Positions 19,827-61,908 of a stretch of DNA of 64,000 nucleotides are shown here, in pieces (position 1 is the stretch's first letter; each line of letters begins with the position of its first letter). The stretch is taken from contig CALXUP010000001.1 of assembly GCA_944391715.1 (NCBI GenBank), forward strand, positions 100,676-164,675, read 5' to 3'. The translations under genes and the position numbers were made by a program. The stretch is from an uncultured Alphaproteobacteria bacterium (lineage in GTDB: Bacteria; Pseudomonadota; Alphaproteobacteria; RF32; CAG-239). Below the pieces are notes generated by a model, which was not told the DNA's origin, searched no databases, and worked only from the letters and a program-made list of their open reading frames with translations.

Positions 19827-20900
19827 TTAGTTTTCTTTTCGGCAAAAACGGTTAAAAAATAAAGCCAGCTGCCGGATGAAAAAGATTGCGGCGATTGATG
19901 AAAAATGGAAGAACATAGCGCAGGCTCCAAAAATGGCCAGAACAGGGATCCATTTTCCCGAAAGTTCAAAATCCGAATAAAATACCGGAATTCCATAGCA
20001 TAAAGTTATGAATACATAAAGCATCAGCAGAAAGTAGATTATTCTTATTATCGGGCGGAGAATAAATTTTTTGAATTTTCCGCAGGGCTTGTTTTTTATG
20101 AATTTGCGTATTTTTTGCCACTGATACGGGGCAAAAATGTTTCCGCCGTATATTAAAAACATAATGCAAATAATATTGAGGAACATAAAATTTAGAAAAG
20201 CCTGACTACTGAAGGAAGGTGAGGCAAAAAAGGCGTCATTTATGAAATTAACAACGGCATTTTTATGCTCTATTCCCGGATTGCTGAGGTAAAGCGCATT
20301 TTGGCAATAAAGGATTATGTAAGCGAAGAACCCCAGAAAAAGAAGAAAACGGTCAATGAATACCTGATCGACAAATTTTCTGATTTTTAGAAGATGCTTT
20401 TCTTCTTCCGTGGAAAGCCGTTCAATTTTTCCGATGTTGGCAATGATGAAGAATTTATTGAAAAAAGTTTGTTTTATTTTTCTTCTGAATGAGATTTTTG
20501 TGCCGGTGTTTTGCTCTTTTGCTTGTTTCAGGGCACGGTTTATTACTGAATAAGTTTTGAAAAATAAAGTTATCTGCGGCAGGCAGTAAGGGGTAATTGG
20601 AGATTTTTTCCAGGTGATAACGGCAAAGGCATATACGGAAAACAGCATAATCATCATTGCCGGTGCCGAAGGATGTTTTTGGTACAGGGCGGATCCGGCA
20701 AAAAATGTCAGATAGGCAAGCCAGGCAAGGCATATTAATTTGAAAAGGATTCCGTTGTTTTGTTTGTTTTCAATATGTCTCAGCAGTTTTTTCAGCGGAT
20801 TGCCGGCCGCCAGCCGATCGGAGATTCTTAGTCCCGGAATCTGTTTTTGGAATTGTTCAAAATTTTCGGGCAGAAAGTCTTCGGGTGTTATGTCGGTCAT
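19827..20900 (-). CDS. Hypothetical polytopic membrane protein (357 aa) with no recognisable family, in a low-GC islet
   Basis: At least 8 predicted hydrophobic helices and an ATGA overlap with the upstream ORF. AT-rich codon usage distinct from the flanking genes. Confidence 0.55.
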   Translation of the reverse strand: MTDITPEDFLPENFEQFQKQIPGLRISDRLAAGNPLKKLLRHIENKQNNGILFKLICLAWLAYLTFFAGSALYQKHPSAPAMMIMLFSVYAFAVITWKKSPITPYCLPQITLFFKTYSVINRALKQAKEQNTGTKISFRRKIKQTFFNKFFIIANIGKIERLSTEEEKHLLKIRKFVDQVFIDRFLLFLGFFAYIILYCQNALYLSNPGIEHKNAVVNFINDAFFASPSFSSQAFLNFMFLNIICIMFLIYGGNIFAPYQWQKIRKFIKNKPCGKFKKFILRPIIRIIYFLLMLYVFITLCYGIPVFYSDFELSGKWIPVLAIFGACAMFFHFSSIAAIFFIRQLALFFNRFCRKEN

Positions 20901-21862
20901 TGCGTTTTTCCTTTTCCGTTTGTTGTTCGGAGATCGACGGCAAAAATCCTGTTATAAAGTTTGACGTAGAGTTTTGACGGATTTTTTCTCCGGTCGGCGC
21001 TCAGATGAAGAATTTGTTCCGGGTGTTCCGGGGCGGAGGATATTGTAAATTTTTGCGGATAAGGCGGGCAGCCTTCGTAAAAGCCTTTTTGTTTTTTATA
21101 TTTTTCCGGAATGTCTGCCAGTTTTATAGTATCTGAGAACTTTGGATAGGTGTCAATAAAACGGATGTAATTGGTTCCGCAATAGGTAAAGCGGTCTTTT
21201 TGCGGGCAGAAGTTCATTATGGAAACCGTGAAGAACCCTTTTTTATCTTTTAACGGAACGACCTCGTAACCGGCAGCATAAAGCCTGTAGTCTTTCTGGT
21301 CTTTGGTAATGAGCAGGTCAGAAGAGAACATCGGTCTGAAGAAAGGATATTTCCAGTAAGAAACGGCAATCGGAGATAAAATATTTTCGATTTTCGGCTG
21401 GCATTTATTTTTTGAATCAGGAAAGGTGATTTTTTGCAGTGAAAAAAACGGAAATTCCGTTTGGGGAAGATGCAGTTTTAATTTTTCGTACTGATCCGTG
21501 CGGGTAAGTGTGCCGGCAAAACCGCTGTTGATGATGCCGAAATTGTTTTCTTTTTTCAAATTTGTAAAGTCGGAGATTTCCGTATATGTGTTGGTTAATG
21601 TTATGGGCGATATGGACGTTGTTTCTTTTGTTGACGGCCGTTGTTGAAGTAATTCCGAGCTTTTTCGGGCATAATGGGAATCTTTATATTGATTGTCGAT
21701 GCAGGCGGTCAATTTATCTAAGGAAAGAGTGCTGCTGCACCAGAAAAGCGGTTGGGCTTCGAAAAAAAATTTATAATATTTGTTGTACAATTTGACATTT
21801 ATGACAATAAGCACGAGGACAAATATGAGAATAAGGATGCGGCGGAAATTGCTCAGAGGCAT
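20897..21862 (-). CDS. Hypothetical protein (321 aa), N-terminal membrane anchor plus an extracytoplasmic domain, unknown family
   Basis: TM helix ILILIFVLVLIVINV followed by a soluble Cys-containing domain. Translationally coupled to 19827..20900. Confidence 0.55.
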   Translation of the reverse strand: MPLSNFRRILILIFVLVLIVINVKLYNKYYKFFFEAQPLFWCSSTLSLDKLTACIDNQYKDSHYARKSSELLQQRPSTKETTSISPITLTNTYTEISDFTNLKKENNFGIINSGFAGTLTRTDQYEKLKLHLPQTEFPFFSLQKITFPDSKNKCQPKIENILSPIAVSYWKYPFFRPMFSSDLLITKDQKDYRLYAAGYEVVPLKDKKGFFTVSIMNFCPQKDRFTYCGTNYIRFIDTYPKFSDTIKLADIPEKYKKQKGFYEGCPPYPQKFTISSAPEHPEQILHLSADRRKNPSKLYVKLYNRIFAVDLRTTNGKGKTQ

Positions 21863-32899: not shown

Positions 32900-33406
32900 T
32901 TAAACCGGAAAATTGTTCAGATAAAAACTGGCAAGGAGCAGGAGGATGAGCGGTAAAACAACTTTTTCAAACGGAAAATGAGCATGTCCGCCGTTTCCGG
33001 CCTTCATCCACTGATAAAATTTTTGCGAATAAATATAAATGAGCATCCCGAGCAGAGCGCTGAACAAAATCGGATCAAGATAAAAAACATACCAGATAAT
33101 ATGCGGCTGATAATTGACCTCGCTAATATAGATAAAGCCAATCATCCCCACGGAAATCAGCATTAAAAGAAAATCACGCCCCCAAAAATGCCAGTTTTTA
33201 CTGTCGAAAAATTTGATGCACCAATAGCCGAGAAGTGTCAGCAGAGCTCCTGCCCACAAGCCGACGACAGAGTCTTCTATACCAAGTTTCCGGGCAATGC
33301 CGATTGATGCGCCAATGGCAACGGTACAGACGGCGCAGGCCGGATTAGCAAAGGCCTGTACCGGATACAAGATAAAAGCCAATAAGGATAATGTAAGATT
33401 TTTCAT
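32900..33406 (-). CDS. Hypothetical membrane protein (168 aa) with a signal peptide and a CxxC pair near the N-terminus
   Basis: A signal-like N-terminus (MKNLTLSLLAFILYPVQAFA) and four hydrophobic segments. No family recognised. Confidence 0.5.
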   Translation of the reverse strand: MKNLTLSLLAFILYPVQAFANPACAVCTVAIGASIGIARKLGIEDSVVGLWAGALLTLLGYWCIKFFDSKNWHFWGRDFLLMLISVGMIGFIYISEVNYQPHIIWYVFYLDPILFSALLGMLIYIYSQKFYQWMKAGNGGHAHFPFEKVVLPLILLLLASFYLNNFPV

Positions 33407-33566
33407 AATTGCCTCTTTTGTAATATATCAATTATAATACATATATTATATGCTATATATTATAATTGTCAAGATATAATTTTGTGACGCTTTCTCCTTG
33501 ACTCTTATGCAAAGAGCGGTAATTTTGTAATGTTTAACAGAATTATTAATTAACAAAAGTATCATT

Positions 33567-34277
33567 ATGGAAATTTATAAGGAAAATTTACCGCCTTGTT
33601 GGTGGGACGGGCGTTTTGGGAAATTTAACATAAAATGTTCTCTGTCGTATAGGATTTTGGCATTGGAAAAGGGTGCGGAAACTATGTGGCAGGAACGGCA
33701 ATGGTTTATTTTTACGGATAAGCTGACGCGAGTTTCTCTGCGTTCTTTTGTCATGATTGAAAAAGAAACTTTTACCGGGCATCCTTTTTTCAAACTGGTT
33801 ATTGAAAATGAGCCGGTTTCTGAAAGCGATTTTCCGGAAGATTCTTTGGTGTATGAAAGTTTTTATCAAGATCCGGTCGGATACGGTGCAACAGTCGGCA
33901 AGAACTTCTACAGCAGCTTTAGCGCCTTAATGCTTCCGCCCTTTCAAAATCAAACGGGATATTGTATTGGCGGTATATATTTTCGAACGGAACTTGATGA
34001 AGATTTTCAAAAAAAGAAAACAGATCGTTATCTGGTTACTCCGAAAGAATTTTGCGCAAAGGTTTCATGGAAACATCTGGTGAAATATGCCAAGCCGTAC
34101 AATGCTTGTTTTGCTGCAGCGCGGGTAAAGAAATATCCGGACAAGATTTTTGCCGGACGGAGAGTTGTTCCGTTGTATATTGCGGATATTTGTGTCGGGG
34201 CAGAGCTCCTTGGCAGTAAGGGAAAGCCAAATTGCCGAGAGTATATGTCTTTTGAAGACTATTTGTCCTTATTGTAA
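33567..34277 (+). CDS. Hypothetical protein (236 aa), no recognisable domain, low GC
   Basis: Long ORF with coding-like composition, AT-rich relative to its neighbours, preceded by a very AT-rich promoter-like region. Confidence 0.5.
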   Translation: MEIYKENLPPCWWDGRFGKFNIKCSLSYRILALEKGAETMWQERQWFIFTDKLTRVSLRSFVMIEKETFTGHPFFKLVIENEPVSESDFPEDSLVYESFYQDPVGYGATVGKNFYSSFSALMLPPFQNQTGYCIGGIYFRTELDEDFQKKKTDRYLVTPKEFCAKVSWKHLVKYAKPYNACFAAARVKKYPDKIFAGRRVVPLYIADICVGAELLGSKGKPNCREYMSFEDYLSLL

Positions 34278-34321
34278 ATAAAAAAAAGCCGGGAGTTTTT
34301 TACTTTCCGGCCTTTTTATTT

Positions 34322-35179
34322 TTAAGACAATTTTCGGAGGAGGATTTTGAGCTTTCCTTTTAACGTCAACCTTGCTTTCTCCCATTGGACAAACGAATAA
34401 AGAACCGGATAGAGCTTGTCATTGATCTGAAAAACACAATGATAATTTTTCAGTTTATATTTTCCTTCGTCAACCAGGTCAGCACATCCCTTAGATACAG
34501 CATAAAGCTTGGCATTGCCGCTTTCATCCAAAAGAAGATAAGCATTGTCAAAAGTAATAATGTTTTTTCCTTCTGCAAAAAATTTATAAGCCCCGACTTT
34601 GGGAACAAAACCGTAAATTTTCATCTTGTTATTACAATCATCAACGGTTATCAACTCTGCTTTAGCAGGACTGTCGTAACGATAAATATCAAAATATCCA
34701 TCACTTCTTTCAATAACAATCGTTTCATCACAGATAAAAAACGGTTTGCTATACTGTTTTTGAATAAGTTTAAAAGGGTCTGCTGTTAAAAAAGACATAG
34801 TATAATTTTCTTCCGGATAACTTTTCAGATAGAAACATTGTTTCGTTTTAAAAGAACCATAATTTTCGGCTTTTCCCAGACATTCATCTTTGCCCGAAAC
34901 GTTTTTCCGTCTCAGATACCAAAGCCCGTCTTTTTGATATATCAGGCATTTGTCATATTTTTTGATATCAGAACAGTACTGCGGGGTTTGATGCAGTTTG
35001 TCATCCTCAATCCAGAAAAAGCGAAAATTTTCCTCTGAATCTCCCGCTTTTGCCTCCGTCAAAGATTGATCAACCGTAACAGTAATACCCTCGTCCAGCT
35101 TTTCAAACTTTTCCAATTTACTGTCCCATAGCCACAAAATATTCAGGCCGGCAGCTTTTGTAATAATAAAATGTTTCAT
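34322..35179 (-). CDS. Hypothetical protein (~286 aa from MKHFII at 35179), no recognisable domain, low GC
   Basis: Long ORF convergent with 33567..34277. Cys-containing soluble protein. Confidence 0.5.
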   Translation of the reverse strand: MKHFIITKAAGLNILWLWDSKLEKFEKLDEGITVTVDQSLTEAKAGDSEENFRFFWIEDDKLHQTPQYCSDIKKYDKCLIYQKDGLWYLRRKNVSGKDECLGKAENYGSFKTKQCFYLKSYPEENYTMSFLTADPFKLIQKQYSKPFFICDETIVIERSDGYFDIYRYDSPAKAELITVDDCNNKMKIYGFVPKVGAYKFFAEGKNIITFDNAYLLLDESGNAKLYAVSKGCADLVDEGKYKLKNYHCVFQINDKLYPVLYSFVQWEKARLTLKGKLKILLRKLS

Positions 35180-35310
35180 GACATAAAAATATTTAATTTG
35201 ACATAATTTTATTTTGCCCGATGAAAGTAGCATAACGTGCCGGAGAAGTCAACAGATGCTTGAAACCGGAGAAGCGGGGGCTATATCTTTGTTGTTTTAA
35301 GGAGGGGAAA

Positions 35311-41067: not shown

Positions 41068-41328
41068 TTATAATTTCAGACAATTGTTTATGTTTATGCC
41101 TTTGCTGCGGCAGATGGTTTCGCGGTCGCTGTCGGGCAGGTCTTCAAAGTCGCCGTAATTGAGCATATCTTTTTCAAATTCTTCTTCATCGTCCAGGCCG
41201 GCGGCCGTATCAATCAGTTTTTCTTCGGCAATGGTTTTTACAAAAAAGTTTTTTTCGTCGTCTTCCTGAAACGGACGGTTGGAAACATCTTTGATTTCTA
41301 CTTTGTCTCCCGGAGCCGGTGTGTACAT
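41068..41328 (-). CDS. Small acidic hypothetical protein (86 aa)
   Basis: ORF only; D/E-rich; no family recognised. Confidence 0.35.
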   Translation of the reverse strand: MYTPAPGDKVEIKDVSNRPFQEDDEKNFFVKTIAEEKLIDTAAGLDDEEEFEKDMLNYGDFEDLPDSDRETICRSKGININNCLKL

Positions 41329-42276: not shown

Positions 42277-42462
42277 ATGAGAAACTGCAATAATCCGAAA
42301 TGTAAAAATCCGAACTGTACCTGCGGCGATAACTGTACATGTGATGAAACGCATCAGTGCGGAGAAGGCTGCGGATGCAACGAGCATTGTACCTGTGGCG
42401 ATGACTGCCATTGCAATGAAGAGCATAAATGCAGCGAGAAATGCTCTTGTCATAAGGGGTAA
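42277..42462 (+). CDS. Metallothionein-like Cys-rich small protein (61 aa; true start MRNCNNPK at 42277)
   Basis: 17 Cys in 61 aa in repeated CxCG[DN]xC units, AAGGAG RBS 8 nt upstream. Directly followed by a csoR-family gene. Confidence 0.75.
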   Translation: MRNCNNPKCKNPNCTCGDNCTCDETHQCGEGCGCNEHCTCGDDCHCNEEHKCSEKCSCHKG

Positions 42463-42466
42463 AAAG

Positions 42467-42757
42467 ATGACGGAAGGTCAAAGTTTTTCGGAACATCCGA
42501 ATCACGAATCCGAATTGCCGCGGCTGAACAGAATCCTCGGTCAGTTGGAAGGCGTAAAAAAAATGATTGCCGAACACCGGTATTGTCCGGAGATTTTAAT
42601 TCAGCTAAAGGCAATCCGGTCGGCAATCCGCGCCGTGGAAAGCAATATTCTGAACCGGCATTTGCAGGCTTGTGTGACACAGTCGTTTGACAGCGAAGAG
42701 GCCAAGGCCGAAAAAATTGCGGAATTGAAAATGCTTTTTGACCGTTTTGAAGAATAA
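42467..42757 (+). CDS. csoR: CsoR/RcnR/FrmR-family metal-sensing transcriptional repressor (96 aa; true start MTEGQ at 42467)
   Basis: LNRILGQLEGVKKMIAEHRYCPEILIQLKAIRSAIRAVESNILNRHLQAC carries the family W-X-Y-Z ligand positions (Cys in the RYC motif, then His and Cys downstream). Confidence 0.8.
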   Translation: MTEGQSFSEHPNHESELPRLNRILGQLEGVKKMIAEHRYCPEILIQLKAIRSAIRAVESNILNRHLQACVTQSFDSEEAKAEKIAELKMLFDRFEE

Positions 42758-42852
42758 TTACCGGGGCTGCGGCGGCAGCCCTTTTCTATTGATTCCCGTT
42801 AAGCTTTTTGCTATAATATTTCTAATATAAGCGAACAGCGGAGAAAGATTTT

Positions 42853-44424
42853 ATGAGCAAGAATGCCAAAGATATTCCCAATGATGCGGTCTCCCGTTTT
42901 TTGGCACAGGAGTATGCCAGATATAATATGACGCCGCAGGTTATTAAAATTAATAACCGGTCGGTGATTATTCCGTGTTTTTATATCAGAAATTTTTTAA
43001 CAATAGCCGATGCAAAGGAAAATTTTATCAGAGGCTATTTTAGCCGGCAATACAGGGATATTAAACGTTATAAAGAAGAGGGCATTACACCGCGTAAGAT
43101 TTTGTTTAACGGCGGAACTTTTGTTGTCCCCTTTAATAATCGTGACAGTGATAAAACGGACAGTGAGATGGTCGGCGAGATTATGCGTGCGGCTCATCGC
43201 GATTATCGGCGGGCGGCGGTTTATACCCGAAAGACAAACGAATGCGGAATCGGGGATGAGCGCCTGACTGAGCTCGGTTTGGACAATATTGAGGCAATGT
43301 CGGAAGCTTATAACCGTTATCTTGTGGAAAATGCAAAAGAAAAAGCTGCCGCATTTGCCGCGTTTTTGGCCAAAGGTGCCAGGTCGGCGTTTAACGGTGC
43401 AAAAATTTTGCTGGAAAATTCCGGCGGAACACGGAAAGTCAGACTTGAAACCCGGCGTTTTTGCGATTTGGCCAAGAAGACGGTTGTCGGAGCCGCTTTG
43501 ACAACTTTGACGCTGGGCGGCGGAATGTATGCAAGCCAGCAGTTGCAATCCAAACAAAAAGAAAAAGACAAGACGGAGAACTTCATCAGAGCTGAGAATC
43601 TGCCAGAAAATGAGGATATGGCAGAGTTTGCCGGGACAGAAGAGCTTTGGGAGGAAGAAGAAATTGTTCCGGAAACGAAGGAAGAGGCCAAACCGGTTGA
43701 AAAAGCCGTAGAAACCCCGAAAGCAAAAGAACATAAAAAGCCTGTGGCGGATGTTTCAAAAACGGGAAGACTTCCGGAAGAAATCAGAAAAAAATACGGT
43801 TTGGATGACGAAAAATTTCAGCGCTTTATGGGGATTATTTTCAAGCACGAAGGCGGTTATCGTAATGTGCCGTGGGATTATCCGACGCAGATGGGGATTA
43901 CCAGCGTTACGTTGAACAGCTTTTGGCGGAATAATAAGGAACTGGCCAGAAAACTTGATTTTCCGACGGCAAAAAATATTAAAAATCTGAATAAAGAGCA
44001 GTGTGAGCTGATTTATAAACGCGATTTTTATGACCATTACCGAATCGGCGATTTTAAAAATGAAAGCATAGCCTTGTTGTTGTTTGACATCCGGGTTAAC
44101 CATTCGTCAAAGACGGCGGCGGAAATTATTGCCAACGGGATTTATCAGGCGCGCGGACGCAAAAATGTTCGCAGTACGGATAAAATTCTGGAACTGGCCA
44201 ACGGTATTTCTGACAAGGCTTTGAATGAACAGTATTTTTATGACCATATGGTCAAAGCCCGGGTCGATTTTATTAATAAGAATCATAAAAAGAACGGCAG
44301 AAAAAGTAATGATTATAACGGGTTGATGAACCGGGCCAATAAGTTTAAGGGCAAATTTATGGCCACAAACCGCCAAAACAAAAACAGTTTGCGACTGGCG
44401 ATGAACAATGTGCGCGGCAGATAA
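42853..44424 (+). CDS. Membrane-anchored protein with a C-terminal GH108 lysozyme-like plus peptidoglycan-binding (PG_binding_3-like) module. The N-terminal 230 aa are unknown.
   Basis: HEGGYRNVPWDYPTQMGIT matches the GH108 N-terminal signature (EGGYxNxPxDxGGxTxxGIT). A hydrophobic segment TVVGAALTTLTLGGGMYA and an E/K-rich linker precede it. Confidence 0.7.
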   Translation: MSKNAKDIPNDAVSRFLAQEYARYNMTPQVIKINNRSVIIPCFYIRNFLTIADAKENFIRGYFSRQYRDIKRYKEEGITPRKILFNGGTFVVPFNNRDSDKTDSEMVGEIMRAAHRDYRRAAVYTRKTNECGIGDERLTELGLDNIEAMSEAYNRYLVENAKEKAAAFAAFLAKGARSAFNGAKILLENSGGTRKVRLETRRFCDLAKKTVVGAALTTLTLGGGMYASQQLQSKQKEKDKTENFIRAENLPENEDMAEFAGTEELWEEEEIVPETKEEAKPVEKAVETPKAKEHKKPVADVSKTGRLPEEIRKKYGLDDEKFQRFMGIIFKHEGGYRNVPWDYPTQMGITSVTLNSFWRNNKELARKLDFPTAKNIKNLNKEQCELIYKRDFYDHYRIGDFKNESIALLLFDIRVNHSSKTAAEIIANGIYQARGRKNVRSTDKILELANGISDKALNEQYFYDHMVKARVDFINKNHKKNGRKSNDYNGLMNRANKFKGKFMATNRQNKNSLRLAMNNVRGR

Positions 44425-44427
44425 AAT

Positions 44428-44458
44428 AAAATCCCGTTGAAACGGGATCTTATTTTTA
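44428..44458. terminator. Bidirectional terminator hairpin between convergent genes
   Basis: atcccgtt/aacgggat stem followed by CTTATTTTT. Confidence 0.55.
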
Positions 44459-44460
44459 AT

Positions 44461-44727
44461 TTATTGCGGACGTCTGTTTTCCTGTTTTAAGAAAACACTT
44501 TGGTTGCTGTCCTGACGGCCTTCGATTTCCAGTTTGGGGTTAACGAAAGAAGTTGATCCTTTTTCATAAAAGTAAAAATCGCGGCGAATGGCGGCTTTAT
44601 CTTTTATAGAAAGTTGATTCCATTCTTTTTCGTTCATGCCGTAGGGATAGGTTTCTTTGACTTTGGTTTCGGAAACAGCGCAGGCACTGACGGCAAACAG
44701 TAATCCCAGCATTAATAATTTTCTCAT
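44461..44727 (-). CDS. Small lipoprotein, hypothetical (start MRKLLMLG)
   Basis: Lipobox AVSAC after a signal peptide; ~88 aa. Confidence 0.45.
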   Translation of the reverse strand: MRKLLMLGLLFAVSACAVSETKVKETYPYGMNEKEWNQLSIKDKAAIRRDFYFYEKGSTSFVNPKLEIEGRQDSNQSVFLKQENRRPQ

Positions 44728-44956
44728 CTTTTCTCTCCTCAAAATCATACATTAATTATATTAACACGCCGGAGGGTTGATTCCAAAATAAATCTTTTTC
44801 TTTTCCAACAATATTTTTATAACCGGCCGAAAGAATGATATTTGCCGATTCTTAACCTATTGTTTAGAAAGAAATAATAAGATAACGGGCAGAACCACGG
44901 CGGGAATCCGTTTGGTTTCCGTTGGTTTGTTGGTATCAATCTATAAGGAAAATCAT

Positions 44957-47368
44957 ATGTTTGGTTTGAAAAATTTTAAGACTTTCGCCGGTGCCCTGAT
45001 GCTGGCGCTGGTCGGGGTGGTTCAAGGGGCGTATGCTTCAGAAATCGACCTCAAAATTCCGTCTTTGGACGTGGAATACAATATCTTCGGTTATTCCGTC
45101 CTGGGATCGCAGATTTTGTTTTATGGTATGAGCATCTGTGTTCTCGGTATGCTTTTTGGTTTGTATGAATTTCTTAAAATCAAAAAAATGCCGGCTCACG
45201 AAGCCATGCTGAAAGTATCGGAACTGATTTATGCGACCTGCAAAACCTATATGAAACAACAAGCTAAACTGCTTTTGCTTCTGGAATTGTTTATTGCGGT
45301 TTGTATTTTCTACTATTTCTATTATCTCAACGCAACGCCGATGCCGAAAGTGCTGACAATTCTTTCCTGGTCGGTTCTCGGTATTCTCGGGTCTTATTCG
45401 GTGGCCTGGTTCGGTATGCGCATTAACAATTATGCCAATGCCCGCACAGCCTTTTCTTCTTTGGAAGCCAAGGCTTATAAGGTTATGAGCCTGCCGCTGC
45501 GTTCCGGCATGTCTATCGGTGTTTTGCTGATTTGCGTTGAGCTGATTATGATGATTGCCATTCTTTTGTTTGTGCCGAAAGAAAGCGCAGGCGCCTGCTT
45601 TATCGGATTTGCCATCGGTGAATCTTTAGGTGCGGCGGCTTTGCGTATTTGCGGCGGTATCTTTACCAAGATTGCCGATATCGGTGCGGATTTGATGAAG
45701 ATTATTTTCAAAATCGGTGAAGATGATGCCCGCAATCCGGGTGTGATTGCCGACTGTACCGGTGATAATGCCGGCGACTCCGTCGGTCCGACCGCCGATG
45801 GTTTTGAGACTTACGGCGTTACCGGTGTGGCTCTTATCAGCTTTATCGTTCTGGGTGCCGGTATGATGTATGCCCCGAACGGTGATTTGACCCTGATGCC
45901 GAACGGTGTTGATTTTCAGGCTCGTCTGATTGTCTGGATTTTTGCAATGAGACTCCTGATGATTATTACTTCGCTGGTTTCTTACTGGCTTAATAACAAA
46001 GTTTCTTCCGCCCTTTACGGCAAAAAGGAATTTTTTGATTTTGAAAAACCGTTGACCAGCCTGATTTGGTTTACTTCCATTATCTCGATTGCCGTTACTT
46101 TCGGCGTTTCTTATGTGATGATCGGTGATCTCAGCCCGGATTTGTGGTGGAGACTTTCTCTGATTATCAGCTGTGGTACTTTGGCTGCGGCTTTGATTCC
46201 GGAATTTACCAAAATCTTTACTTCGTCAAAATCCCAACATGTTCAGGAAATTGTCAAATCCAGTCGTGAGGCCGGTGCTTCTCTGAACATTATTTCCGGT
46301 ATCGTTGCCGGTAATTTCTCGGCTTTTTGGCAGGGTATAGTTATGGTCGGCCTGATGGTGGTTGCGTTCTTTACCGCCCAATCCGGTTTGGACAGCTTTA
46401 TGGTTTATCCGACAGTCTTTGCTTTCGGTCTGGTAGCTTTCGGTATGCTCGGCATGGGGCCGGTTACGATTGCCGTAGACAGCTATGGCCCGGTAACCGA
46501 TAATGCCCAGTCTGTTTTTGAGCTTTCTCAGATTGAAGGTATTAAGAACGTTGACAAAGATATTGAGAAAAAATACGGCTTTAAACCGAATTTTGAGCAG
46601 GGCAAACATTTGCTCGAGGCCAATGACGGCGCCGGAAATACCTTTAAAGCAACGGCTAAGCCGGTGCTTATCGGTACGGCCGTTATCGGTGCTACAACGA
46701 TGATTTTCTCAATTATCCTGTTGCTTAACCTGAAACTGAATCTGCTGGATCCGCAAGTCCTGTTCGGCCTTATTCTCGGCGGTGCGGTGATTTACTGGTT
46801 CTCCGGCGCTTCAATGCAGGCGGTTTCGACCGGGGCTTATCGTGCAGTTGATTTTATTAAAAAACATATCAAACTGAGCGGTAAGAAAGCGGCTTCGCAG
46901 AAAGACTCTCAGGAAGTGGTCAAGATTTGCACAATTTATGCGCAAAAGGGTATGTTTAATATCTTTATCGTAATCTTTTCCTTTACGATTGCTTTTGCCT
47001 GCTTTGATGCAAATCTGTTTGCAAGCTATCTGATTTCAATTGCCGTATTTGGTTTGTTCCAAGCGCTGTTTATGGCAAATGCCGGCGGTGCATGGGATAA
47101 CGCCAAGAAAGTGGTTGAAGTTGATTTGAACGAGAAAGGTACGCCGCTGCATGACGCTACCGTTGTCGGCGATACGGTCGGTGATCCGTTCAAAGATACG
47201 TCTTCCGTTGCTCTCAACCCGATTATCAAATTTACAACCTTGTTTGGTTTGTTGGCGGTTGAGATGGCCGTAGCGGCTCCGAGATGTGTATCTCTGGGGC
47301 TGGGTATTTTCTTCTTATTGTTGGGGTTGGTATTTGTATATCGGTCTTTCTACAAGATGAAAATATAA
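44957..47368 (+). CDS. hppA: Membrane-bound proton-translocating pyrophosphatase (H+-PPase)
   Basis: About 800 aa and 15+ TM. The conserved GDNAGD and DxxGDxxGD motif region (CTGDNAGDSVGPTADGFETY) is present, and an AAGGAAAA RBS precedes the ATG at 44957. Confidence 0.9.
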   Translation: MFGLKNFKTFAGALMLALVGVVQGAYASEIDLKIPSLDVEYNIFGYSVLGSQILFYGMSICVLGMLFGLYEFLKIKKMPAHEAMLKVSELIYATCKTYMKQQAKLLLLLELFIAVCIFYYFYYLNATPMPKVLTILSWSVLGILGSYSVAWFGMRINNYANARTAFSSLEAKAYKVMSLPLRSGMSIGVLLICVELIMMIAILLFVPKESAGACFIGFAIGESLGAAALRICGGIFTKIADIGADLMKIIFKIGEDDARNPGVIADCTGDNAGDSVGPTADGFETYGVTGVALISFIVLGAGMMYAPNGDLTLMPNGVDFQARLIVWIFAMRLLMIITSLVSYWLNNKVSSALYGKKEFFDFEKPLTSLIWFTSIISIAVTFGVSYVMIGDLSPDLWWRLSLIISCGTLAAALIPEFTKIFTSSKSQHVQEIVKSSREAGASLNIISGIVAGNFSAFWQGIVMVGLMVVAFFTAQSGLDSFMVYPTVFAFGLVAFGMLGMGPVTIAVDSYGPVTDNAQSVFELSQIEGIKNVDKDIEKKYGFKPNFEQGKHLLEANDGAGNTFKATAKPVLIGTAVIGATTMIFSIILLLNLKLNLLDPQVLFGLILGGAVIYWFSGASMQAVSTGAYRAVDFIKKHIKLSGKKAASQKDSQEVVKICTIYAQKGMFNIFIVIFSFTIAFACFDANLFASYLISIAVFGLFQALFMANAGGAWDNAKKVVEVDLNEKGTPLHDATVVGDTVGDPFKDTSSVALNPIIKFTTLFGLLAVEMAVAAPRCVSLGLGIFFLLLGLVFVYRSFYKMKI

Positions 47369-47775: not shown

Positions 47776-48288
47776 TTATTTTGTCTGATGCTGATATTCG
47801 TTTAAGGCGTTGCGGAGAATATTGACAATCTCTTTGGGATCATCTTGAAAAATAAAGGTAGGAATTCGAATATGGTTTCCGAATAACGGCTTGTCTATTT
47901 TTTTATAAAATTGTTGGAATTTTGATAGTCTTTGTAAAATATTACTGAGGTCATAAACATTAATTTCTATCATTTTATTATTTTTATAGGTTATCAGTTC
48001 TATATTTATAATTTCGGAATAGTGGATAAAGCCATATTTGCAAAGGTTATCGATAATTCCTTGCGGGGTTATGCTTAAGATAGATTTTTTTTGATTTCCG
48101 AACTGTAAAAATTTTAAGCACTGATATGAGGAAAATAAACAAATAACGCCACAGAAAATGATATCTATGTTTTTTTTAGGATTTCCCGCGTAAAGAAAAA
48201 GAAGGATGCCACAAGAAAGAGCTGCTAAAAATGTTATAAAACTGATAGTGTAACAACGGAATTTAGAAACTTTGAATTCTCTCGTCAT
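47776..48288 (-). CDS. Hypothetical small membrane protein (170 aa; two N-terminal TM helices plus a soluble domain, possibly a bacterial PH-like domain)
   Basis: ORF with an AT-rich composition and two hydrophobic helices. No confident family. Confidence 0.45.
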   Translation of the reverse strand: MTREFKVSKFRCYTISFITFLAALSCGILLFLYAGNPKKNIDIIFCGVICLFSSYQCLKFLQFGNQKKSILSITPQGIIDNLCKYGFIHYSEIINIELITYKNNKMIEINVYDLSNILQRLSKFQQFYKKIDKPLFGNHIRIPTFIFQDDPKEIVNILRNALNEYQHQTK

Positions 48289-48323: not shown

Positions 48324-50609
48324 TTATCCTTCCAGAATTTCCCGTTTGCCGGCATGGTCGGGGGCGCTGATAATGCCGTCTTCTTCCATGCGTTCAATTA
48401 ATGTTGCCGCTTTGTTATACCCAATTCTCAGACGGCGTTGGACATAGCTGATGGAGGTTTTTTTATCGTTTTTGACAAGGGCAACGGCCTGAGCGTACAA
48501 ATCGTCTTCCCCGCCGCCGGCGCCTCCGCCGAAACTGCCTTTGTCAAAAACGGCACCGCTGTCTTTTTCGTTCAGCTGTCCTTCGGTTACGCCTTCAACA
48601 TATTCCGGTGCTTTTTGCGCTTTTAAGAACTCGACGATGCTTTCAATCTCACTGTCTTTAACGAATCCGGCGTGAACGCGCAACGGGCGTTGGCCGGCCG
48701 GCATATAGAGCATATCGCCCATGCCGAGCAGTTGTTCGGCGCCTTGTTCACCCAGAATGGTGCGGCTGTCGATTTTGGAAGTAACCTGAAAACTGATGCG
48801 GGTCGGGAAGTTGGCTTTAATCGTACCGGTGATGACGTCGACGGACGGCCTCTGGGTGGACATAATCAAATGCAGTCCGGCAGCACGCGCCATTTGAGCC
48901 AGGCGCTGGATAGCCGCCTCAACTTCTTTGCCGGCAACGAGCATCAGGTCGGCCATTTCATCAACAATGATAACAATATATGGCAGCGGCGTGAGATCCA
49001 GGTCTTGCTCTTCATAAATCGGAGCGCCGGTTTCGGCATCGAATCCGGTTTGTATCGTCCGCTTAATCTTTTGTCCGCTGGCTTTGAGCTCGCGCAGTTT
49101 CTGGTTATAACCGGAGATGTTGCGGACATTGAGCTGAGCCATGGCACGGTAGCGGTCTTCCATTTCCTTAACAGCCCATTTTAAGCCGATAACGGCCTTG
49201 GCCGGATCGGTTATCACCGGCGTCAACAGGTGCGGAATTCCGTTATATAACGAAAATTCAAGCATTTTCGGGTCAATCATAATGAGTTTGCATTCATCCG
49301 GGCGCATTTTGTAAAGCAGTGATAAAATCATCGTGTTAACACCGACGGATTTTCCGGAACCGGTTGTTCCGGCCACCAACAAGTGCGGCATTTTGGCCAG
49401 GTCGGCATAAATATTTTTGCCGCCGATGTCTTTGCCGAGCGTAACGGTTAATGCCCCTTTGGCATTTTTGAATTCCTCGCAGTCAAGCAATTCTCTTAAA
49501 TAAACAATCTCGCGGGTCGGGTTCGGCATTTCTATTCCGATGGTGTTGCTGCCCGGAACAACGGCAATACGAACGGAAACGGCGCTCATTGAGCGGGCAA
49601 TGTCGTCTGCCAGGCTGATGACGCGAGCGGTTTTGGTGCCGGGAGCGGGCTCCAGTTCATAAAGGGTAACGACCGGTCCGGGGCGGATTTTGACGATTTT
49701 GCCGTTAATGCCGAATTCCTGCAAAACGTTTTCCAAATCGAGTGCAATCTTGTCCAGTTCTTTCTGGCTGACATTATGGGTGCTCTTTTCTTTGGGTTTG
49801 GAAAGGATTTCCAGGCTTGGATACTGATAATCATCGCCGGCGGGCTCCGGTGTGTAGGGTTTGGACTTTTCAAAGCCCGGTTCCTTTTTATCTTCTTTGT
49901 CCTTGGTTGTTTTTTCTTTTTTGCGGCGCGGAGCTTTGTCTTTTGCCGTTTCTTTCAGTTTTTCTTCACGGCGGTGCGGCGCAAAGCTGAAAATGTAACG
50001 GAAGGCAGCGGCTGTCCATAAAGCGCCGGTTTTAATCCAGCCGGCCAGGCGGCGGCCGAAATCCAGCCAGTTGCGGCAGGTAATGCCGGCAGCAAAGTTG
50101 AAGAAAAAGACGGAGAACAGCAGCAAAACCGTGCCGAAAATCCAATCGGCATAGCCGTAGACGTAAAACTTTTTGAAGAGGGTCAGAATATGGCTGGCAA
50201 AAAGCGCGCCGACGGTTCCGCCGAGCCGGAAAGTGCCGGTAAAATCAGGCAGCAGGCTTAAGAACATGGAAAAGCTCAAAATGCCGAAAAGGAGAGAGAA
50301 AGTACGGTAAACCGGAAATTCTAGTTCTTTGGCGCGCACCAACTGCCAGCCCCAGATTATTATTGCACAGAGAAACGGAAAAAGCGCAATGCCGAAGTAG
50401 TTGAAAATAAATGCGGCCGTGTTTGCCCCGCCGCTTCCCAACAGGTTTTTGACCGGTGTGGCAGAGGCGGACAAAAAGGAGTTGTCGCCGATGTGGCAGA
50501 AAATGCAGCTGAGAAAAGCGTAGAGCGGGAAAATAATTAATGCCGCTCCGAAAATGCGCCACAAAATTCTGACGATAATGTTTTTTTCTTTTTTCTTTTT
50601 TCTTGCCAT
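48324..50609 (-). CDS. ftsK: DNA translocase FtsK
   Basis: N-terminal 4-TM domain, a Pro/Lys/Glu-rich linker, the FtsK motor with Walker A GTTGSGKS and a C-terminal gamma (winged-helix) domain. Confidence 0.95.
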   Translation of the reverse strand: MARKKKKEKNIIVRILWRIFGAALIIFPLYAFLSCIFCHIGDNSFLSASATPVKNLLGSGGANTAAFIFNYFGIALFPFLCAIIIWGWQLVRAKELEFPVYRTFSLLFGILSFSMFLSLLPDFTGTFRLGGTVGALFASHILTLFKKFYVYGYADWIFGTVLLLFSVFFFNFAAGITCRNWLDFGRRLAGWIKTGALWTAAAFRYIFSFAPHRREEKLKETAKDKAPRRKKEKTTKDKEDKKEPGFEKSKPYTPEPAGDDYQYPSLEILSKPKEKSTHNVSQKELDKIALDLENVLQEFGINGKIVKIRPGPVVTLYELEPAPGTKTARVISLADDIARSMSAVSVRIAVVPGSNTIGIEMPNPTREIVYLRELLDCEEFKNAKGALTVTLGKDIGGKNIYADLAKMPHLLVAGTTGSGKSVGVNTMILSLLYKMRPDECKLIMIDPKMLEFSLYNGIPHLLTPVITDPAKAVIGLKWAVKEMEDRYRAMAQLNVRNISGYNQKLRELKASGQKIKRTIQTGFDAETGAPIYEEQDLDLTPLPYIVIIVDEMADLMLVAGKEVEAAIQRLAQMARAAGLHLIMSTQRPSVDVITGTIKANFPTRISFQVTSKIDSRTILGEQGAEQLLGMGDMLYMPAGQRPLRVHAGFVKDSEIESIVEFLKAQKAPEYVEGVTEGQLNEKDSGAVFDKGSFGGGAGGGEDDLYAQAVALVKNDKKTSISYVQRRLRIGYNKAATLIERMEEDGIISAPDHAGKREILEG

Positions 50610-50671
50610 GTTTTTTATGTCCGTTTCTTTTCCCTCGGCCGGATTATATGCCTGAAATCCTCAAAGAATTC

Positions 50672-51100
50672 TTAATTTTGGCAATAAATTTCGTTGGTTT
50701 TTTCTTTTTCTATTGCGGCTTTGATGCGGGAAATTATCTTTTGTTTTTCTTCCGGAGCGTAGGGTTCCGAATGGTTGTTCCAAACGGTGGTCGGCCAGTC
50801 GGGATCACCTTCTTTGCGGCAGAGAATGTGGATGTGAAGCTGCGGCGTTTTATTGCCGATCATTGCCACGTTGGTCTGGTCATGCGGAAACAGTCCGGCC
50901 ATAACCTTTTCACAGAGCGCCATCTCGCGCATCAGCTGCAGGCGGTCTTCCATGCTCAGAAAGGTCATATTTTTGACGTTTTCCCGTTTGGGAACCAGAA
51001 AGATCCACGGATAAAAGCGATTGTCTTCAAACAAAACGGTGCAGAGTTTCAGGTCGGTAATGTGGGCTTTTTGCGCCAGTCCGGGAACGAGCTTGAACAT
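50672..51100 (-). CDS. HIT-family (histidine triad) protein
   Basis: HxHxHxx motif (QLHIHIL) near the C-terminal third; ~140 aa. Confidence 0.8.
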   Translation of the reverse strand: MFKLVPGLAQKAHITDLKLCTVLFEDNRFYPWIFLVPKRENVKNMTFLSMEDRLQLMREMALCEKVMAGLFPHDQTNVAMIGNKTPQLHIHILCRKEGDPDWPTTVWNNHSEPYAPEEKQKIISRIKAAIEKEKTNEIYCQN

Positions 51101-51202
51101 ATTATGTCTTCCTTTGCGATAGTATAAAATGGGTTTTTGTCTTGACTTTATGACAATAATCGATAAACCTTAACGCGATATTAATAGAATAAAGAGGTTT
51201 TA

Positions 51203-58884: not shown

Positions 58885-59028
58885 TTAACTTTCCTTATCT
58901 GCTTTTTTTTATTCCATTCTTGCGGCAAAGGCAACCCTTTGTTTGGAAATTTTAATAAATTGTGCAGTATATTCAGGTTTTTTGTGTTTGGGGTTGACTA
59001 ATCGGGAATCTGTCTTAAACTTGCCGGT

Positions 59029-61908
59029 ATGAAAAGAAAAATTTATAATATTCCCGCCAGCTGCGGCTTTGTTGACGTTCTTGCTCGAAAATTTTTGCAA
59101 GAATATCAAAATGACAGAACGGCTTTGGCCGATGTCTTGTTTTTGCTGCCAAACCGCCGGGCCGTTAAGGCTCTGGCTGAGGCTTTTGTGCGGGAAGAGG
59201 GGCTCTCTCCGATGCTTTTGCCGCGGATGATGCCGCTCGGCGAGGCAGAAGAAGACGAGTTGTTTTTGACCGGTGGCGGCGGCCGGCAGTATTTGGCCGG
59301 GATGTTTCCGGCAGTCAGCGCAACAGAACGCAATCTTTTGTTTGCCAAGATTATTATGGTCAAGCCCGGCGATTTCGGAATGGAAAAAATGTCTTTGAAC
59401 CAGGCCTGTTATCTGGCGCAGGAACTTTCCGGGCTGATTGATCTGGCTGAAAATGAACAGCTTGACTTTTTGGAGCTGGAAAAGCTTGTGCCGGCGGATT
59501 ATGCCGAGCATTGGCAGGAAACTCTGAAATTTTTAAAGATTATTACCGAATATTGGCCGTTGATTTTACAAGAAAGGCAGGTTATTGACCCGGCCGAGCG
59601 ACGCAATCGGTTGTTGGAGGCGCAATGCGACATCTGGCAGCAGAACCGTCCGGCAAAAAGGATTGTTATTGCCGGAACAACGGCAACTTACCCGTTGATG
59701 AAAAAGCTGGTTAAGACGGTTCTTGATTTGCCGAACGGAGAACTCTGGTTATCGGCGCTGGACAGGAAACTTGACGATGAAAGCTGGAATGCCGTTGATG
59801 AAACACATCCGCAGTTTGAGCTTAAGCAGCTGTTGGAATATCTGGATATGCCGCGGGAATTGGTTGTTGACGTTTGCCCAGCCGAAAATACGCAACGGGA
59901 ATTATTTGTTTCAGAAGTTATGCGTCCGGCAAAGGTAACGGAGCGTTGGCTTGACATCGGGCAAAAAGGGTTGGACCGGCAGGCCTGGGAGCAGGTTAAT
60001 CTGTTAAATTGCACGGACTTGCGCGAAGAGGCACTGGCGATTGCTCTGATTATGCGCGAGGTTTTGGAAACGCCGGGAAAAACGGCGGCACTGGTTACGC
60101 CGGACAGAAATTTGGCCCGACGGACAGCGGCGGAATTGGAACGTTGGGATATTCAAGTGGATGATTCCGCCGGCCGGCCGTTAAGCCTTACGCCTGTCGG
60201 TATTTTTCTGCGGCTGGTTATTCAAGCGGCCGAAAACAAATCGCGGCTTAAGTTGTTAGCGTTGCTGAAACATCCGTTGCTTCGAATGGGCAGAGAAGCG
60301 TCGGATATCCGTCTTTACGTCAGAGATTTGGAAAAATGGTGGCGGAATGCCATAGCCGATGACGGCAGGCTTGAGGCTTTTCTTCATGAAACGTCTGAGC
60401 AACTGGCAGATTTGTCAGAGATGCTGAAAAATACAAAGAGCTCTTTGAAAGATTTGCTGGCATGTCATATAAAAACGGCTGAATTGTTGGCCCGGACGCC
60501 GGAGCAGGACGGTGAGCAGATTTTATGGCGGGGAGATGACGGTGAGGCGGCCGCACAGTTTGTTGCCGATTTGTATGAAAATGCCGAAGTTTTAGGCGAG
60601 ATTGAGACTTCTGATTACAGCGGTCTGCTGGAGGCTTTGATGACCGGGGTTAACGTTCGTCCGAAATTCGGAGGGCATCCGCGGTTGAAAATCCTCGGCC
60701 CGATAGAGGCACGGTTGAACAGTTTTGATGTTGTCATTGTCGGGGAGGTCAATGAAGGAAGCTGGCCCCGGCAGGTTTCTTCCGATCCGTGGATGTCCCG
60801 TCCGATGAAAAAAGATTTTGGCTTTCCTTTGCCGGAAAAGGCAATTGGGATTGCAGCGCTGGATTTTGCCCGTTTGTTATGCGGCAAAGAGGTTTATCTT
60901 ACGCGTGCCGAACGAGTCCAGGGAACACCGATGGTTAAATTGCGCTGGTGGCTGCGTTTGGAAACGGTGTTGAAGGCCTTAGGGCAGAAAATCGTTGAGC
61001 GGGAGCTTAAACCTTATGGCTATTGGGCAGAAAAACTTGACGAACCTGATGAATTTATCCGATTGAGACCGCCGGCTCCGCGGCCTCCGGTCAGACTGCG
61101 GCCGGATGCTTTGTCGGCAAGCGCGATTGAAAAATGGATGCGCGATCCTTATGAAATTTATGCCCGCTATATTTTAAAGCTTAAACCCTTGGAAGAAGTG
61201 GAGCAGAAACTTGATTTTTCCGATTACGGAACAATTGTTCATGCCGTTTTGCAGGCTTTTAACGAAAAATATCCCGGCCAGTTGCCGGAAAATGCCCGTG
61301 AAGAGCTGATGAGTCTTGGGGAGACTTATTTTGCCGAAAATCAGGTTGCACAGGAAACAAGGGCTTTCTGGTGGCCTAATTTTGAAAAATCGGTTGACTG
61401 GTTTTTGCGGCAGGAAAAATCTTACCGGCCGCAGATTGTGCAGGTTAATACCGAGGTTCCCGGTGCTTTGACGATTAAAACGGCCGGACGGGATTTTACG
61501 CTGAAAGCGATTGCCGACAGGGTGGACATTACCAAAGACGGAAAATTTAACATTATCGATTATAAAACCGGCCGGGCCAGAAAAGCAAAAGAAGTGCGAA
61601 CCGGAAAGGCGCCTCAGCTGCCGATAGAAGGCATTATTGCAGAGGGCGGCGGTTTTGAAAATCTTTCTGCCCGGAAAGTGGATAAATTGCTTTATTGGCA
61701 GCTCGGGCGGCAGGAAACGGAAATTTCCGGCGATACAGAGCAGGTTCTGAGCGATAATCTTGAAATCCTCCGCCAATATATCAGTGATTTTGAGTTTGAA
61801 ACAACAGCCTATGTCTGTCAGCCGAATCCCAAAAATATCCCGGAATATTCGGATTATGAGCATTTGGCAAGAATAAAAGAATGGTCGGTGAAAGACAATG
61901 ATGATTGA
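59029..61908 (+). CDS. addB: Double-strand break repair nuclease AddB (alphaproteobacterial type)
   Basis: 959 aa. C-terminal RecB-like PD-(D/E)xK nuclease motif (NIIDYKTGRA...QLPIE). The downstream gene overlaps by 11 nt and is addA. Confidence 0.85.
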   Translation: MKRKIYNIPASCGFVDVLARKFLQEYQNDRTALADVLFLLPNRRAVKALAEAFVREEGLSPMLLPRMMPLGEAEEDELFLTGGGGRQYLAGMFPAVSATERNLLFAKIIMVKPGDFGMEKMSLNQACYLAQELSGLIDLAENEQLDFLELEKLVPADYAEHWQETLKFLKIITEYWPLILQERQVIDPAERRNRLLEAQCDIWQQNRPAKRIVIAGTTATYPLMKKLVKTVLDLPNGELWLSALDRKLDDESWNAVDETHPQFELKQLLEYLDMPRELVVDVCPAENTQRELFVSEVMRPAKVTERWLDIGQKGLDRQAWEQVNLLNCTDLREEALAIALIMREVLETPGKTAALVTPDRNLARRTAAELERWDIQVDDSAGRPLSLTPVGIFLRLVIQAAENKSRLKLLALLKHPLLRMGREASDIRLYVRDLEKWWRNAIADDGRLEAFLHETSEQLADLSEMLKNTKSSLKDLLACHIKTAELLARTPEQDGEQILWRGDDGEAAAQFVADLYENAEVLGEIETSDYSGLLEALMTGVNVRPKFGGHPRLKILGPIEARLNSFDVVIVGEVNEGSWPRQVSSDPWMSRPMKKDFGFPLPEKAIGIAALDFARLLCGKEVYLTRAERVQGTPMVKLRWWLRLETVLKALGQKIVERELKPYGYWAEKLDEPDEFIRLRPPAPRPPVRLRPDALSASAIEKWMRDPYEIYARYILKLKPLEEVEQKLDFSDYGTIVHAVLQAFNEKYPGQLPENAREELMSLGETYFAENQVAQETRAFWWPNFEKSVDWFLRQEKSYRPQIVQVNTEVPGALTIKTAGRDFTLKAIADRVDITKDGKFNIIDYKTGRARKAKEVRTGKAPQLPIEGIIAEGGGFENLSARKVDKLLYWQLGRQETEISGDTEQVLSDNLEILRQYISDFEFETTAYVCQPNPKNIPEYSDYEHLARIKEWSVKDNDD

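Follow-up and report, generated by a model that had tools for sequence, protein, structure and literature searches.

A chromosomal GH108 muramidase with a tandem-repeat N-terminal domain and a predicted membrane anchor in uncultured gut Alphaproteobacteria

Bacteria must confine potentially lethal wall hydrolases in space and time, and to our knowledge few mechanisms link the cytoplasm to periplasmic glycosidases. MltG (YceG family) is a housekeeping bitopic lytic transglycosylase with an N-in/C-out topology and, in some species, a sizeable cytoplasmic N-terminal region. Caulobacter SpmX, the product of an alphaproteobacterial core gene, combines a co-opted GH24 phage-type lysozyme domain with membrane anchoring. 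Among GH108 enzymes, the Brucella abortus autolysin SagA (PDB 7DNP) serves the VirB type IV secretion system (T4SS); it is tethered by a linker of ~50 residues and a single transmembrane (TM) segment, a tether proposed by its authors to confine activity locally (PMC8334348). The Salmonella Typhi GH108 muramidase TtsA acts in the typhoid-toxin type X secretion system (T10SS), and its C-terminal lobe sets substrate specificity and localisation (PMC6996933). The gene described here lies on the + strand of a 64-kb stretch of DNA from an uncultured alphaproteobacterium, hereafter the window, and encodes a 523-aa protein (the muramidase, to which all residue numbers refer). It represents a small, unannotated and new family of tethered muramidases, in which the catalytic module is exchangeable and the tandem-repeat cytoplasmic domain is novel. 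In the reading that we regard as probable, it is a housekeeping enzyme, expressed constitutively and confined to a narrow set of these bacteria: a periplasmic muramidase with a type II anchor that is chromosomally fixed and is positioned or gated from the cytoplasm by its N-terminal domain (N-domain).

The coding sequence (42853..44424, +) is complete, running from an ATG start through 523 codons to the stop, and the open reading frame (ORF) proposed in an earlier sequence-only reading matches it exactly in position and length. The start codon is backed by a GGAG ribosome-binding site (RBS; 42840..42843, +), which lies 9 nt 5' of the ATG and is invariant in 7 genomes, and by a conserved MSKNA N-terminus in the same genomes. 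The exact 523-aa protein is present on 57 public contigs. Its orthologues fall into six further clusters (66-99% identity), all drawn from human, Hadza, mouse and water-deer metagenome-assembled genomes of uncultured gut Alphaproteobacteria or proteobacteria. Pairwise ratios of nonsynonymous to synonymous substitution rates (dN/dS) among orthologues are 0.02-0.30 across all regions of the protein, and lowest in the GH108 lobe and tail. Because these values hold in every region, the ORF is more than a chance one: it is a real gene, under purifying selection over its whole length.

The enzyme is identified by its C-terminal half. The GH108 catalytic lobe (residues 328-417; 43834..44103, +; dN/dS 0.02-0.05) matches PF05838 Glyco_hydro_108 at E 6.8e-14 and 52.6 bits against a cutoff of 21.2, over profile positions 3-84 of 85, and carries the signature motif HEGGYRNVPWDYPTQMGIT at residues 332-350; the GH108 assignment made from the letters alone is thereby upheld above the gathering score. 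The triad E333/D342/T345, mapped through an alignment with Neisseria meningitidis NMB1012 onto the Glu17/Asp26/Thr31 triad of SagA (PMC8334348), is invariant in 14 of 14 GH108-type family members. It answers to the GH108 pattern of a catalytic Glu in an EGGY motif with Asp and Thr on the alpha1-alpha2 loop. The Glu-Asp spacing is 9, the same as in NMB1012 and SagA, and the Asp-Thr spacing is 3 instead of 5, the catalytic loop being two residues shorter than usual. A PDB sequence search matched NMB1012 at E 2e-6. The best Foldseek matches of the full-length model were 2IKB/2IS5 (probability 1.00, target-normalised TM-score 0.66-0.71), with E-values that are modest (2e-3), the query being a full-length, medium-confidence model. 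In a superposition of ~180 aligned columns the C-terminal half of the protein covers both lobes of the 162-residue NMB1012 chain over its full length. The muramidase belongs to GH108 on profile, triad and fold, and the C-terminal ~200 residues make up, to judge from their sequence, a complete GH108 N-acetylmuramidase with an intact triad, whose activity is predicted.

Behind the catalytic lobe lies a helical tail (residues 418-505; 44104..44367, +) in the predicted position of the peptidoglycan (PG)-binding or substrate-specificity lobe, with a dN/dS (0.03-0.11) that puts it under about the same constraint as the catalytic lobe, and diverged from PF09374. The latter profile, PG_binding_3, gave no match in the muramidase even at E<=1 and none in 29 family members at E<=0.01. 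The NMB1012 superposition spans the tail, as do the PHROG 315 endolysin profile, which aligns through residue ~509, and alignments with phage GH108 endolysins, which run through residue ~505 (36 phage records, <=29% identity, 85% coverage). In light of these three alignments the tail is predicted to be topologically equivalent to the GH108 PG-binding lobe, though it falls outside PG_binding_3 by the Pfam model. The earlier description of a PG_binding_3-like tail therefore fails as a Pfam match and survives, indirectly, as a statement on lobe position. The protein ends in a peptide (residues 511-523; 44383..44421, +; ...SLRLAMNNVRGR) that pairs a hydrophobic patch with a terminal [KR]-x-R, a motif recognised from family C-termini and common to members carrying GH108 and members carrying GH24. 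A terminal Arg is found in 13 of 20 cluster representatives, where composition would predict 1.2 and 2000 shuffles never gave more than 6; since the sequences are not phylogenetically independent, the count carries no formal probability.

Segment 210-233 (43480..43551, +; TVVGAALTTLTLGGGMYASQQLQS) is the sole hydrophobic segment of the protein and a predicted signal anchor. It is 54% Gly/Ala/Ser/Thr, is preceded by a Lys/Arg cluster, and was delimited by hydrophobicity scans and alignment (dN/dS 0.06-0.21). On the Goldman-Engelman-Steitz (GES) scale it forms a unique peak of 26.4 kcal/mol, the next best being 8.6. Its net flank charge is +4 on the N side and +1 on the C side, and the AlphaFold model places a helix at residues 198-235. 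A basic N-flank and a positionally matching segment recur in most of 22 full-length relatives, among which the C-flank seldom carries the more positive charge of the two; the exceptions are P0013 (flank charges) and P0019 (no clear peak there). There is no signal peptide at the N-terminus. Because of the unique GES peak, the asymmetry of the flanks, the retention of the pattern in the family and the missing signal peptide, the best reading is a predicted N-in/C-out topology, that of a type II signal anchor. The TM helix posited earlier is thus recovered as a single segment, weak in Kyte-Doolittle (KD) hydropathy, unique on the GES scale and conserved in position, and the topology check that had been proposed with it, run on hydrophobicity and flank charges, returns this orientation. 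In the TM core (residues 210-227) 11 of 18 residues are invariant among orthologues, which exceeds the needs of a passive anchor and hints at helix-helix contacts.

The anchor is joined to the enzyme by an E/K-rich, disordered and presumptively periplasmic linker (residues 234-305; 43552..43767, +). Its composition (residues 231-305, 75 aa in all, include 18 E and 12 K), its disorder in the model (pLDDT <50) and its low conservation agree with the linker of the sequence-only reading. It is the least conserved region of the protein, with a mean identity of 47% among orthologues, and its length varies among them as well; in the family as a whole it lies between 18 and 106 residues, the minimum resting on the unclear hydrophobic-segment call in P0019.

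The N-domain occupies residues ~1-190 (up to ~205). Its AlphaFold2 model, made with a 21-sequence alignment, is confident (pLDDT 86, pTM 0.74) and contains helices at residues 12-23, 42-47, 51-62, 64-76 and 103-130, a long helix at 143-189, and beta-hairpins at 29-40 and 82-91. When the two halves of the core, residues 12-62 and 63-130, were compared with hhalign they proved homologous (probability 95.3%, E 2.4e-8); on this profile evidence the core is a tandem duplication of a 'helix-Y-x6-P-hairpin-P-aromatic' unit. Repeat 1 (residues 12-62; 42886..43038, +; pLDDT >90) comprises a helix ending in E20-Y21, P28, the first hairpin, P41, Y44 and a further helix, and repeat 2 (residues 63-130; 43039..43242, +) comprises a helix with Y73, then P80, the second hairpin, P93 and helix 103-130 with Y118/A121. 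Six residues are invariant among the 21 diverse members (Y21, P41, Y44, Y73, P93 and Y118) and P28 is nearly so, at least 90%. The invariant residues are Tyr and Pro, and the domain has no ligand-binding or enzymatic signature. From the core the long stalk helix (residues 143-189; 43279..43419, +) leads towards the membrane, its pLDDT dropping from 95 to ~60 along the way.

Sequence and fold searches found no relative of the N-domain in Pfam, NCBIfam, PHROG, PADLOC or PDB, as the earlier remark that it has no recognisable family would lead one to expect; the size given with that remark, ~230 aa, is corrected to ~190-205 aa. A likeness of the 'hhhP..[YF].R' hairpins to those of AbrB and MraZ failed the profile test: an AbrB/MraZ/MazE swapped-hairpin identity was rejected on hhalign probabilities of 2% and 0.2%.

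An exhaustive search of 1.84 billion cluster representatives with the N-domain profile, of the kind that the sequence-only reading had called for, returned 29 proteins only. Scores were E 1.3e-120 for P0001, the 99%-identical representative of the target cluster, and 4e-30 to 8e-4 for the 28 other clusters. When the diverse N-domain alignment was used to look for homologues by indexed words, it yielded five fragments only, one of which was traced to an uninformative 1.8-kb contig. In nearly all 29 proteins the N-domain stands at the extreme N-terminus and is followed by a single hydrophobic segment, at residues ~165-230, and a linker. The one clear exception is P0029, a LysM-repeat protein that was matched internally and is probably spurious. 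The catalytic partner, at the C-terminus, is GH108 in 9 clusters and GH24 (Pfam Phage_lysozyme) in 11, the rest being short fragments apart from P0029, and in the GH24 branch the context of the T4-lysozyme E/D/T triad is intact. Because the same N-domain pairs with either GH108 or GH24, the N-domain/TM scaffold is, on comparison of these sequences, the constant part of the protein and the muramidase module the exchangeable one. A clean GH108/GH24 split appeared in 6 of 100 bootstraps of the N-domain tree, so the number of exchanges is not settled by the tree.

Further features are confined to parts of the family. Six GH24 relatives (P0015, P0018, P0019, P0022, P0031 and P0034) carry an extra C-terminal ~120 aa after the lysozyme domain. 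In this extension the cysteines are conserved in part (G-C-Y...D-C..C) and a 'v..lP' motif occurs as well; it would fit a disulfide-bonded periplasmic module. Matches to Sigma70_r4 (E 3.8e-5) and SpoIIID (E 1.1e-4), each seen once among the 29 members, and other single-member Pfam matches were rejected as family traits, being absent from ten members that were rescanned.

The manner in which such a protein might work can be pictured from its order of domains. The muramidase would insert via helix 210-233, leaving the N-domain, a folded unit unable to pass through the membrane, in the cytoplasm and the enzyme in the periplasm. By the argument already made for the linker and TM segment of SagA, the disordered linker would serve as a leash that brings the sacculus within reach of the enzyme, only near the anchor point. 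Because the N-domain is retained when the catalytic module is swapped, it is the part that may supply positioning or gating, and the pairing of one scaffold with two unrelated muramidase folds argues that the scaffold, not the enzyme, holds the specific function. The N-domain probably fixes where or when the enzyme acts, whether it docks to a partner in the cytoplasm or membrane, oligomerises via the stalk and the small-residue-rich TM helix, or does both. Growth, septation and the insertion of an envelope-spanning structure are candidate processes, and the most likely role is not phage lysis but the everyday remodelling of peptidoglycan on a local scale.

A bolder form of this proposal, which we put forward only tentatively and think rather improbable, is that N-domain, stalk, TM helix and [KR]-x-R peptide make up an undescribed transmembrane control scaffold that recruits or gates an exchangeable GH108 or GH24 muramidase. 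If so, the protein would be a single-polypeptide counterpart of FtsEX-EnvC/PcsB or of machine-docked autolysins, and it might be a principal spatially controlled glycan cleaver for growth or division in reduced gut Alphaproteobacteria.

Several points weigh against a type II-anchored, cytoplasmically positioned enzyme. The KD hydropathy of segment 210-233 is weak in this clade, 1.08 against the usual cutoff of 1.6, the equivalent segment in distant family members reaching 1.6-2.0. The full-length AlphaFold model is of low confidence for the TM segment, the linker, the catalytic loop and the C-terminus. The N-domain has neither a fold nor a sequence relative from which a function could be borrowed, and the control or positioning role that we give it is putative. 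No neighbour gene is common to different subclades in the seven distant family contexts, so no pathway can be named. Finally, the search for a machine that the enzyme might serve covered the window and 13 related loci, and a distant secretion or flagellar locus could lie elsewhere in the genome.

The surroundings of the gene bear on what it might otherwise be. The scan of genomic context took in ~50 large ORFs of the window (most of at least 150 aa), the 10-kb flanks of six orthologous loci and seven distant family contexts, and within this scope found no T4SS, type VI secretion system (T6SS), flagellar or pilus genes, and no prophage, holin/spanin or toxin genes. All window ORFs with a Pfam match belong to diderm housekeeping (LptF/G, LptE, YidC, LeuRS, DnaB, a Mla-type ABC system, FabD/G, GrpE, RNase PH and AddB), and the seven more distant family members are likewise found among housekeeping genes. 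PADLOC gave no matches for the muramidase locus, which has no defence-island context. A tblastn search of two N-domains against 50,697 phage genomes found nothing, as did three IMG/VR pattern scans, narrow tests that need exact peptide words; within the limits of these searches the N-domain is absent from INPHARED, from the IMG/VR scans and from the BFVD viral structures.

The gene order is acidic 86-aa ORF, pirin, Cys-rich ORF, CsoR, muramidase, convergent 95-aa lipoprotein, H+-pyrophosphatase (H+-PPase) and, farther on, FtsK. It is the same in six related genomes, except that pirin has no match in L001 and L004. The muramidase lies directly 3' of the cassette of Cys-rich ORF and CsoR, where the earlier reading had placed it, separated from it by a terminator and a promoter-like site of its own. 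The terminator-like hairpin and T-run (42763..42782, +), found by pattern scan, mark the end of the Cys-rich ORF/CsoR unit and the 5' boundary of the muramidase unit; across 7 genomes the stem changes are compensatory and the T-run is invariant. The sigma-70-type promoter-like site (42789..42817, +), TTGATT-17-TATAAT with an extended -10 TG, has 10 of 12 matches, and its hexamers are invariant in the 7 genomes; such a near-consensus sequence would be of the strong constitutive type. A terminator-like hairpin from the same kind of scan (44431..44448, +) is shared with the convergent lipoprotein gene. Because the conserved terminator after CsoR is followed by the invariant promoter-like site and RBS, the muramidase is predicted to be its own transcription unit, outside the metal cassette, and co-transcription with that cassette was rejected because of the conserved terminator and promoter-like site.

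The neighbouring genes deserve description in their own right. The Cys-rich ORF (~61 aa; 42277-42462, +) has repeated CxC/CxxC and no Pfam match, and lies directly 5' of the gene for a CsoR-family metal-sensing repressor (42467-42757, +; PF02583, E 2.9e-24). The pair is kept in all six related genomes together with the terminator after it and its compensatory stem changes, and from its sequence the Cys-rich ORF looks like a metallothionein-like protein with CsoR as its own regulator. On the other side, the convergent gene (44461-44748, -) encodes a predicted 95-aa lipoprotein with the lipobox LFAVSAC, present in all seven genomes at 81-96% identity. This lipoprotein has no Pfam, PADLOC or PDB match, and none that is MliC/PliC/PhiA-like; a lysozyme-inhibitor role by analogy with PhiA/MliC was weighed, and no match of any kind supports it. 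The very acidic 86-aa ORF (41068-41328, -) has no family and is unusually constrained, at 91-98% identity in six related genomes where the muramidase is at 66-91%. The membrane H+-PPase (44957-47368, +; PF03030, E 1e-184) is 95.8-99.8% identical in protein sequence across the related genomes, far above any neighbour.

ORFs of 160-455 aa with no Pfam match occur in the window at 10045-11412(-), 19827-20900(-), 20897-21862(-), 32900-33406(-), 33567-34277(+), 34322-35233(-), 47776-48288(-), 50603-51127(+) and 58909-59511(-); those within 32900-35233 show 44-94% identity in related genomes and are likely real lineage-specific genes. Small co-directional ORFs (143-217 aa, no Pfam match) adjoin the muramidase genes of distant family members at L016:9252-9905, L010:209-850, L018:1412-1843 and L014:3204-3764.

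The structural part of the sequence-only reading (a bitopic protein with cytoplasmic domain, TM helix, linker and periplasmic GH108 enzyme with a PG-binding-like lobe) has stood, and its functional guesses find no support in the local evidence. The first of these was a hydrolase dedicated to a secretion or flagellar apparatus. In its general form the idea holds that the muramidase opens the sacculus for a T4SS, flagellum, pilus or T10SS-like export system encoded elsewhere, as SagA, TtsA, FlgJ and VirB1 do, the N-domain docking on the cytoplasmic face of the machine. Characterised chromosomal GH108 enzymes are of this kind (SagA for a T4SS, TtsA for typhoid toxin), a tether with a cytoplasmic docking domain would suit it, and the conservation of the TM helix points to a specific partner in the membrane. 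The loci scanned, all housekeeping in content, offer no secretion, flagellar, pilus, holin or toxin gene, the promoter is of near-consensus sigma-70 type, and the neighbourhood differs between subclades; a machine-dedicated role is in our judgement unlikely.

A regulated autolysin, sensor or programmed-lysis device is more doubtful again. Here the N-domain would sense a cue inside the cell and, by way of the stalk and TM helix, switch on the muramidase, whether to release cell contents, to form vesicles, in abortive infection or as a single-chain analogue of hydrolase control of FtsEX type. The rigid stalk helix does run continuously towards the TM segment, whose residues are conserved beyond the needs of a simple anchor; the basic C-terminal peptide, also conserved, could be an autoinhibitory or targeting element, and an exchangeable warhead on a constant scaffold would be in keeping with such a device. 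However, the N-domain shows no ligand-binding or enzymatic signature, its invariant residues being Tyr and Pro, a disordered linker of ~70 residues is ill suited to passing on a conformational change, neither a defence island nor a PADLOC match marks the locus, and the reading is wholly inferential.

The second guess, a domesticated prophage lysin, is very unlikely in any of its forms, including a cryptic prophage endolysin held at the membrane and then released or activated to lyse the cell. Its basis is that complete phage GH108 endolysins and PHROG 315 can be aligned with the catalytic module, that the alternative partner domain is Pfam 'Phage_lysozyme', and that the TM segment, weakly hydrophobic and rich in Gly/Ala/Ser/Thr before a lysozyme domain, recalls the signal-anchor-release (SAR) endolysins P1 Lyz and phage 21 R21. 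The kinship of the module with the phage enzymes is no more than distant (<=29% identity), however; there are no phage genes, holin or spanin nearby, housekeeping synteny is fixed across 7 genomes, purifying selection is strong over the whole length, PADLOC returned nothing, and the phage and viral collections (INPHARED, the IMG/VR pattern scans and BFVD) lack the N-domain within the limits of those searches. SAR domains, moreover, stand at the extreme N-terminus and exit the membrane, whereas the segment of the muramidase starts at residue 210 and has no lysis cassette beside it. Because the hydrophobic helix sits inside the chain, after a folded domain of ~200 residues, release of the SAR type into the periplasm is impossible, and a SAR endolysin identity was rejected on this internal position together with the lack of holin, spanin or phage genes. 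That segment 210-233 is not inserted at all, being buried or amphipathic in a protein that is cytoplasmic or otherwise exported, is scarcely credible: the KD maximum below the cutoff speaks for it, and against it stand the unique GES peak, the higher KD values in relatives, the basic N-flank in most of 22 members, the need of an intact-triad muramidase under strong selection for access to the periplasm, and the partly conserved cysteines of the GH24-branch extension, which fit a periplasmic location.

Since muramidases tethered to membranes were known before, the type II-anchored muramidase positioned from the cytoplasm introduces no new principle. What the family offers is one more chromosomal use of GH108 enzymes, the third with those of SagA and TtsA, and a testable handle on wall remodelling and on cytoplasmic control of hydrolases in uncultured gut Alphaproteobacteria. 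MltG is its closest analogue in overall logic, differing in its YceG fold, its lytic transglycosylase chemistry, its lack of a long disordered linker and its unrelated cytoplasmic region. In SpmX the muramidase domain, which serves for localisation, is N-terminal and the TM segments are C-terminal. The protein described here has the opposite polarity, and its catalytic residues show strict conservation.

Among GH108 proteins, residues ~320-505 are best matched, in sequence and in fold, by NMB1012 (PDB 2IKB/2IS5) and the PHROG 315 endolysins, whose two-lobed and all-helical architecture they are predicted to share. NMB1012 and the phage GH108-PG_binding_3 endolysins are soluble proteins of ~165-180 aa at <=29% identity, without anchor, linker or N-domain. 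Their catalytic loop reads D-P-G-G-x-T in place of the D-Y-P-T of the muramidase, in which the second lobe no longer matches PF09374. TtsA shares with the muramidase a non-lytic chromosomal use of GH108, and its lobe is a precedent for the conserved, divergent tail found here, whereas TtsA itself is soluble, is encoded in a toxin islet and is self-targeted by its C-terminal lobe, without a TM segment or cytoplasmic module. The sequence similarity of SagA to the muramidase is marginal (E 0.72), and no T4SS linkage was found in the window or 13 related loci. The TM segment of SagA is C-terminal (residues 223-245) and SagA has no cytoplasmic domain, whereas in the muramidase a folded cytoplasmic domain of ~190 residues comes first and the anchor precedes the enzyme, giving the order N-domain-TM-linker-enzyme in place of enzyme-linker-TM, an inverted polarity. 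The two proteins have in common a chromosomal GH108 lobe with a helical lobe behind it (in the muramidase a predicted PG-binding lobe), a Glu/Asp/Thr triad, and a linker and TM tether to the inner membrane (here predicted), and by this analogy it is as a tethered GH108 enzyme, most like SagA, that the muramidase would work.

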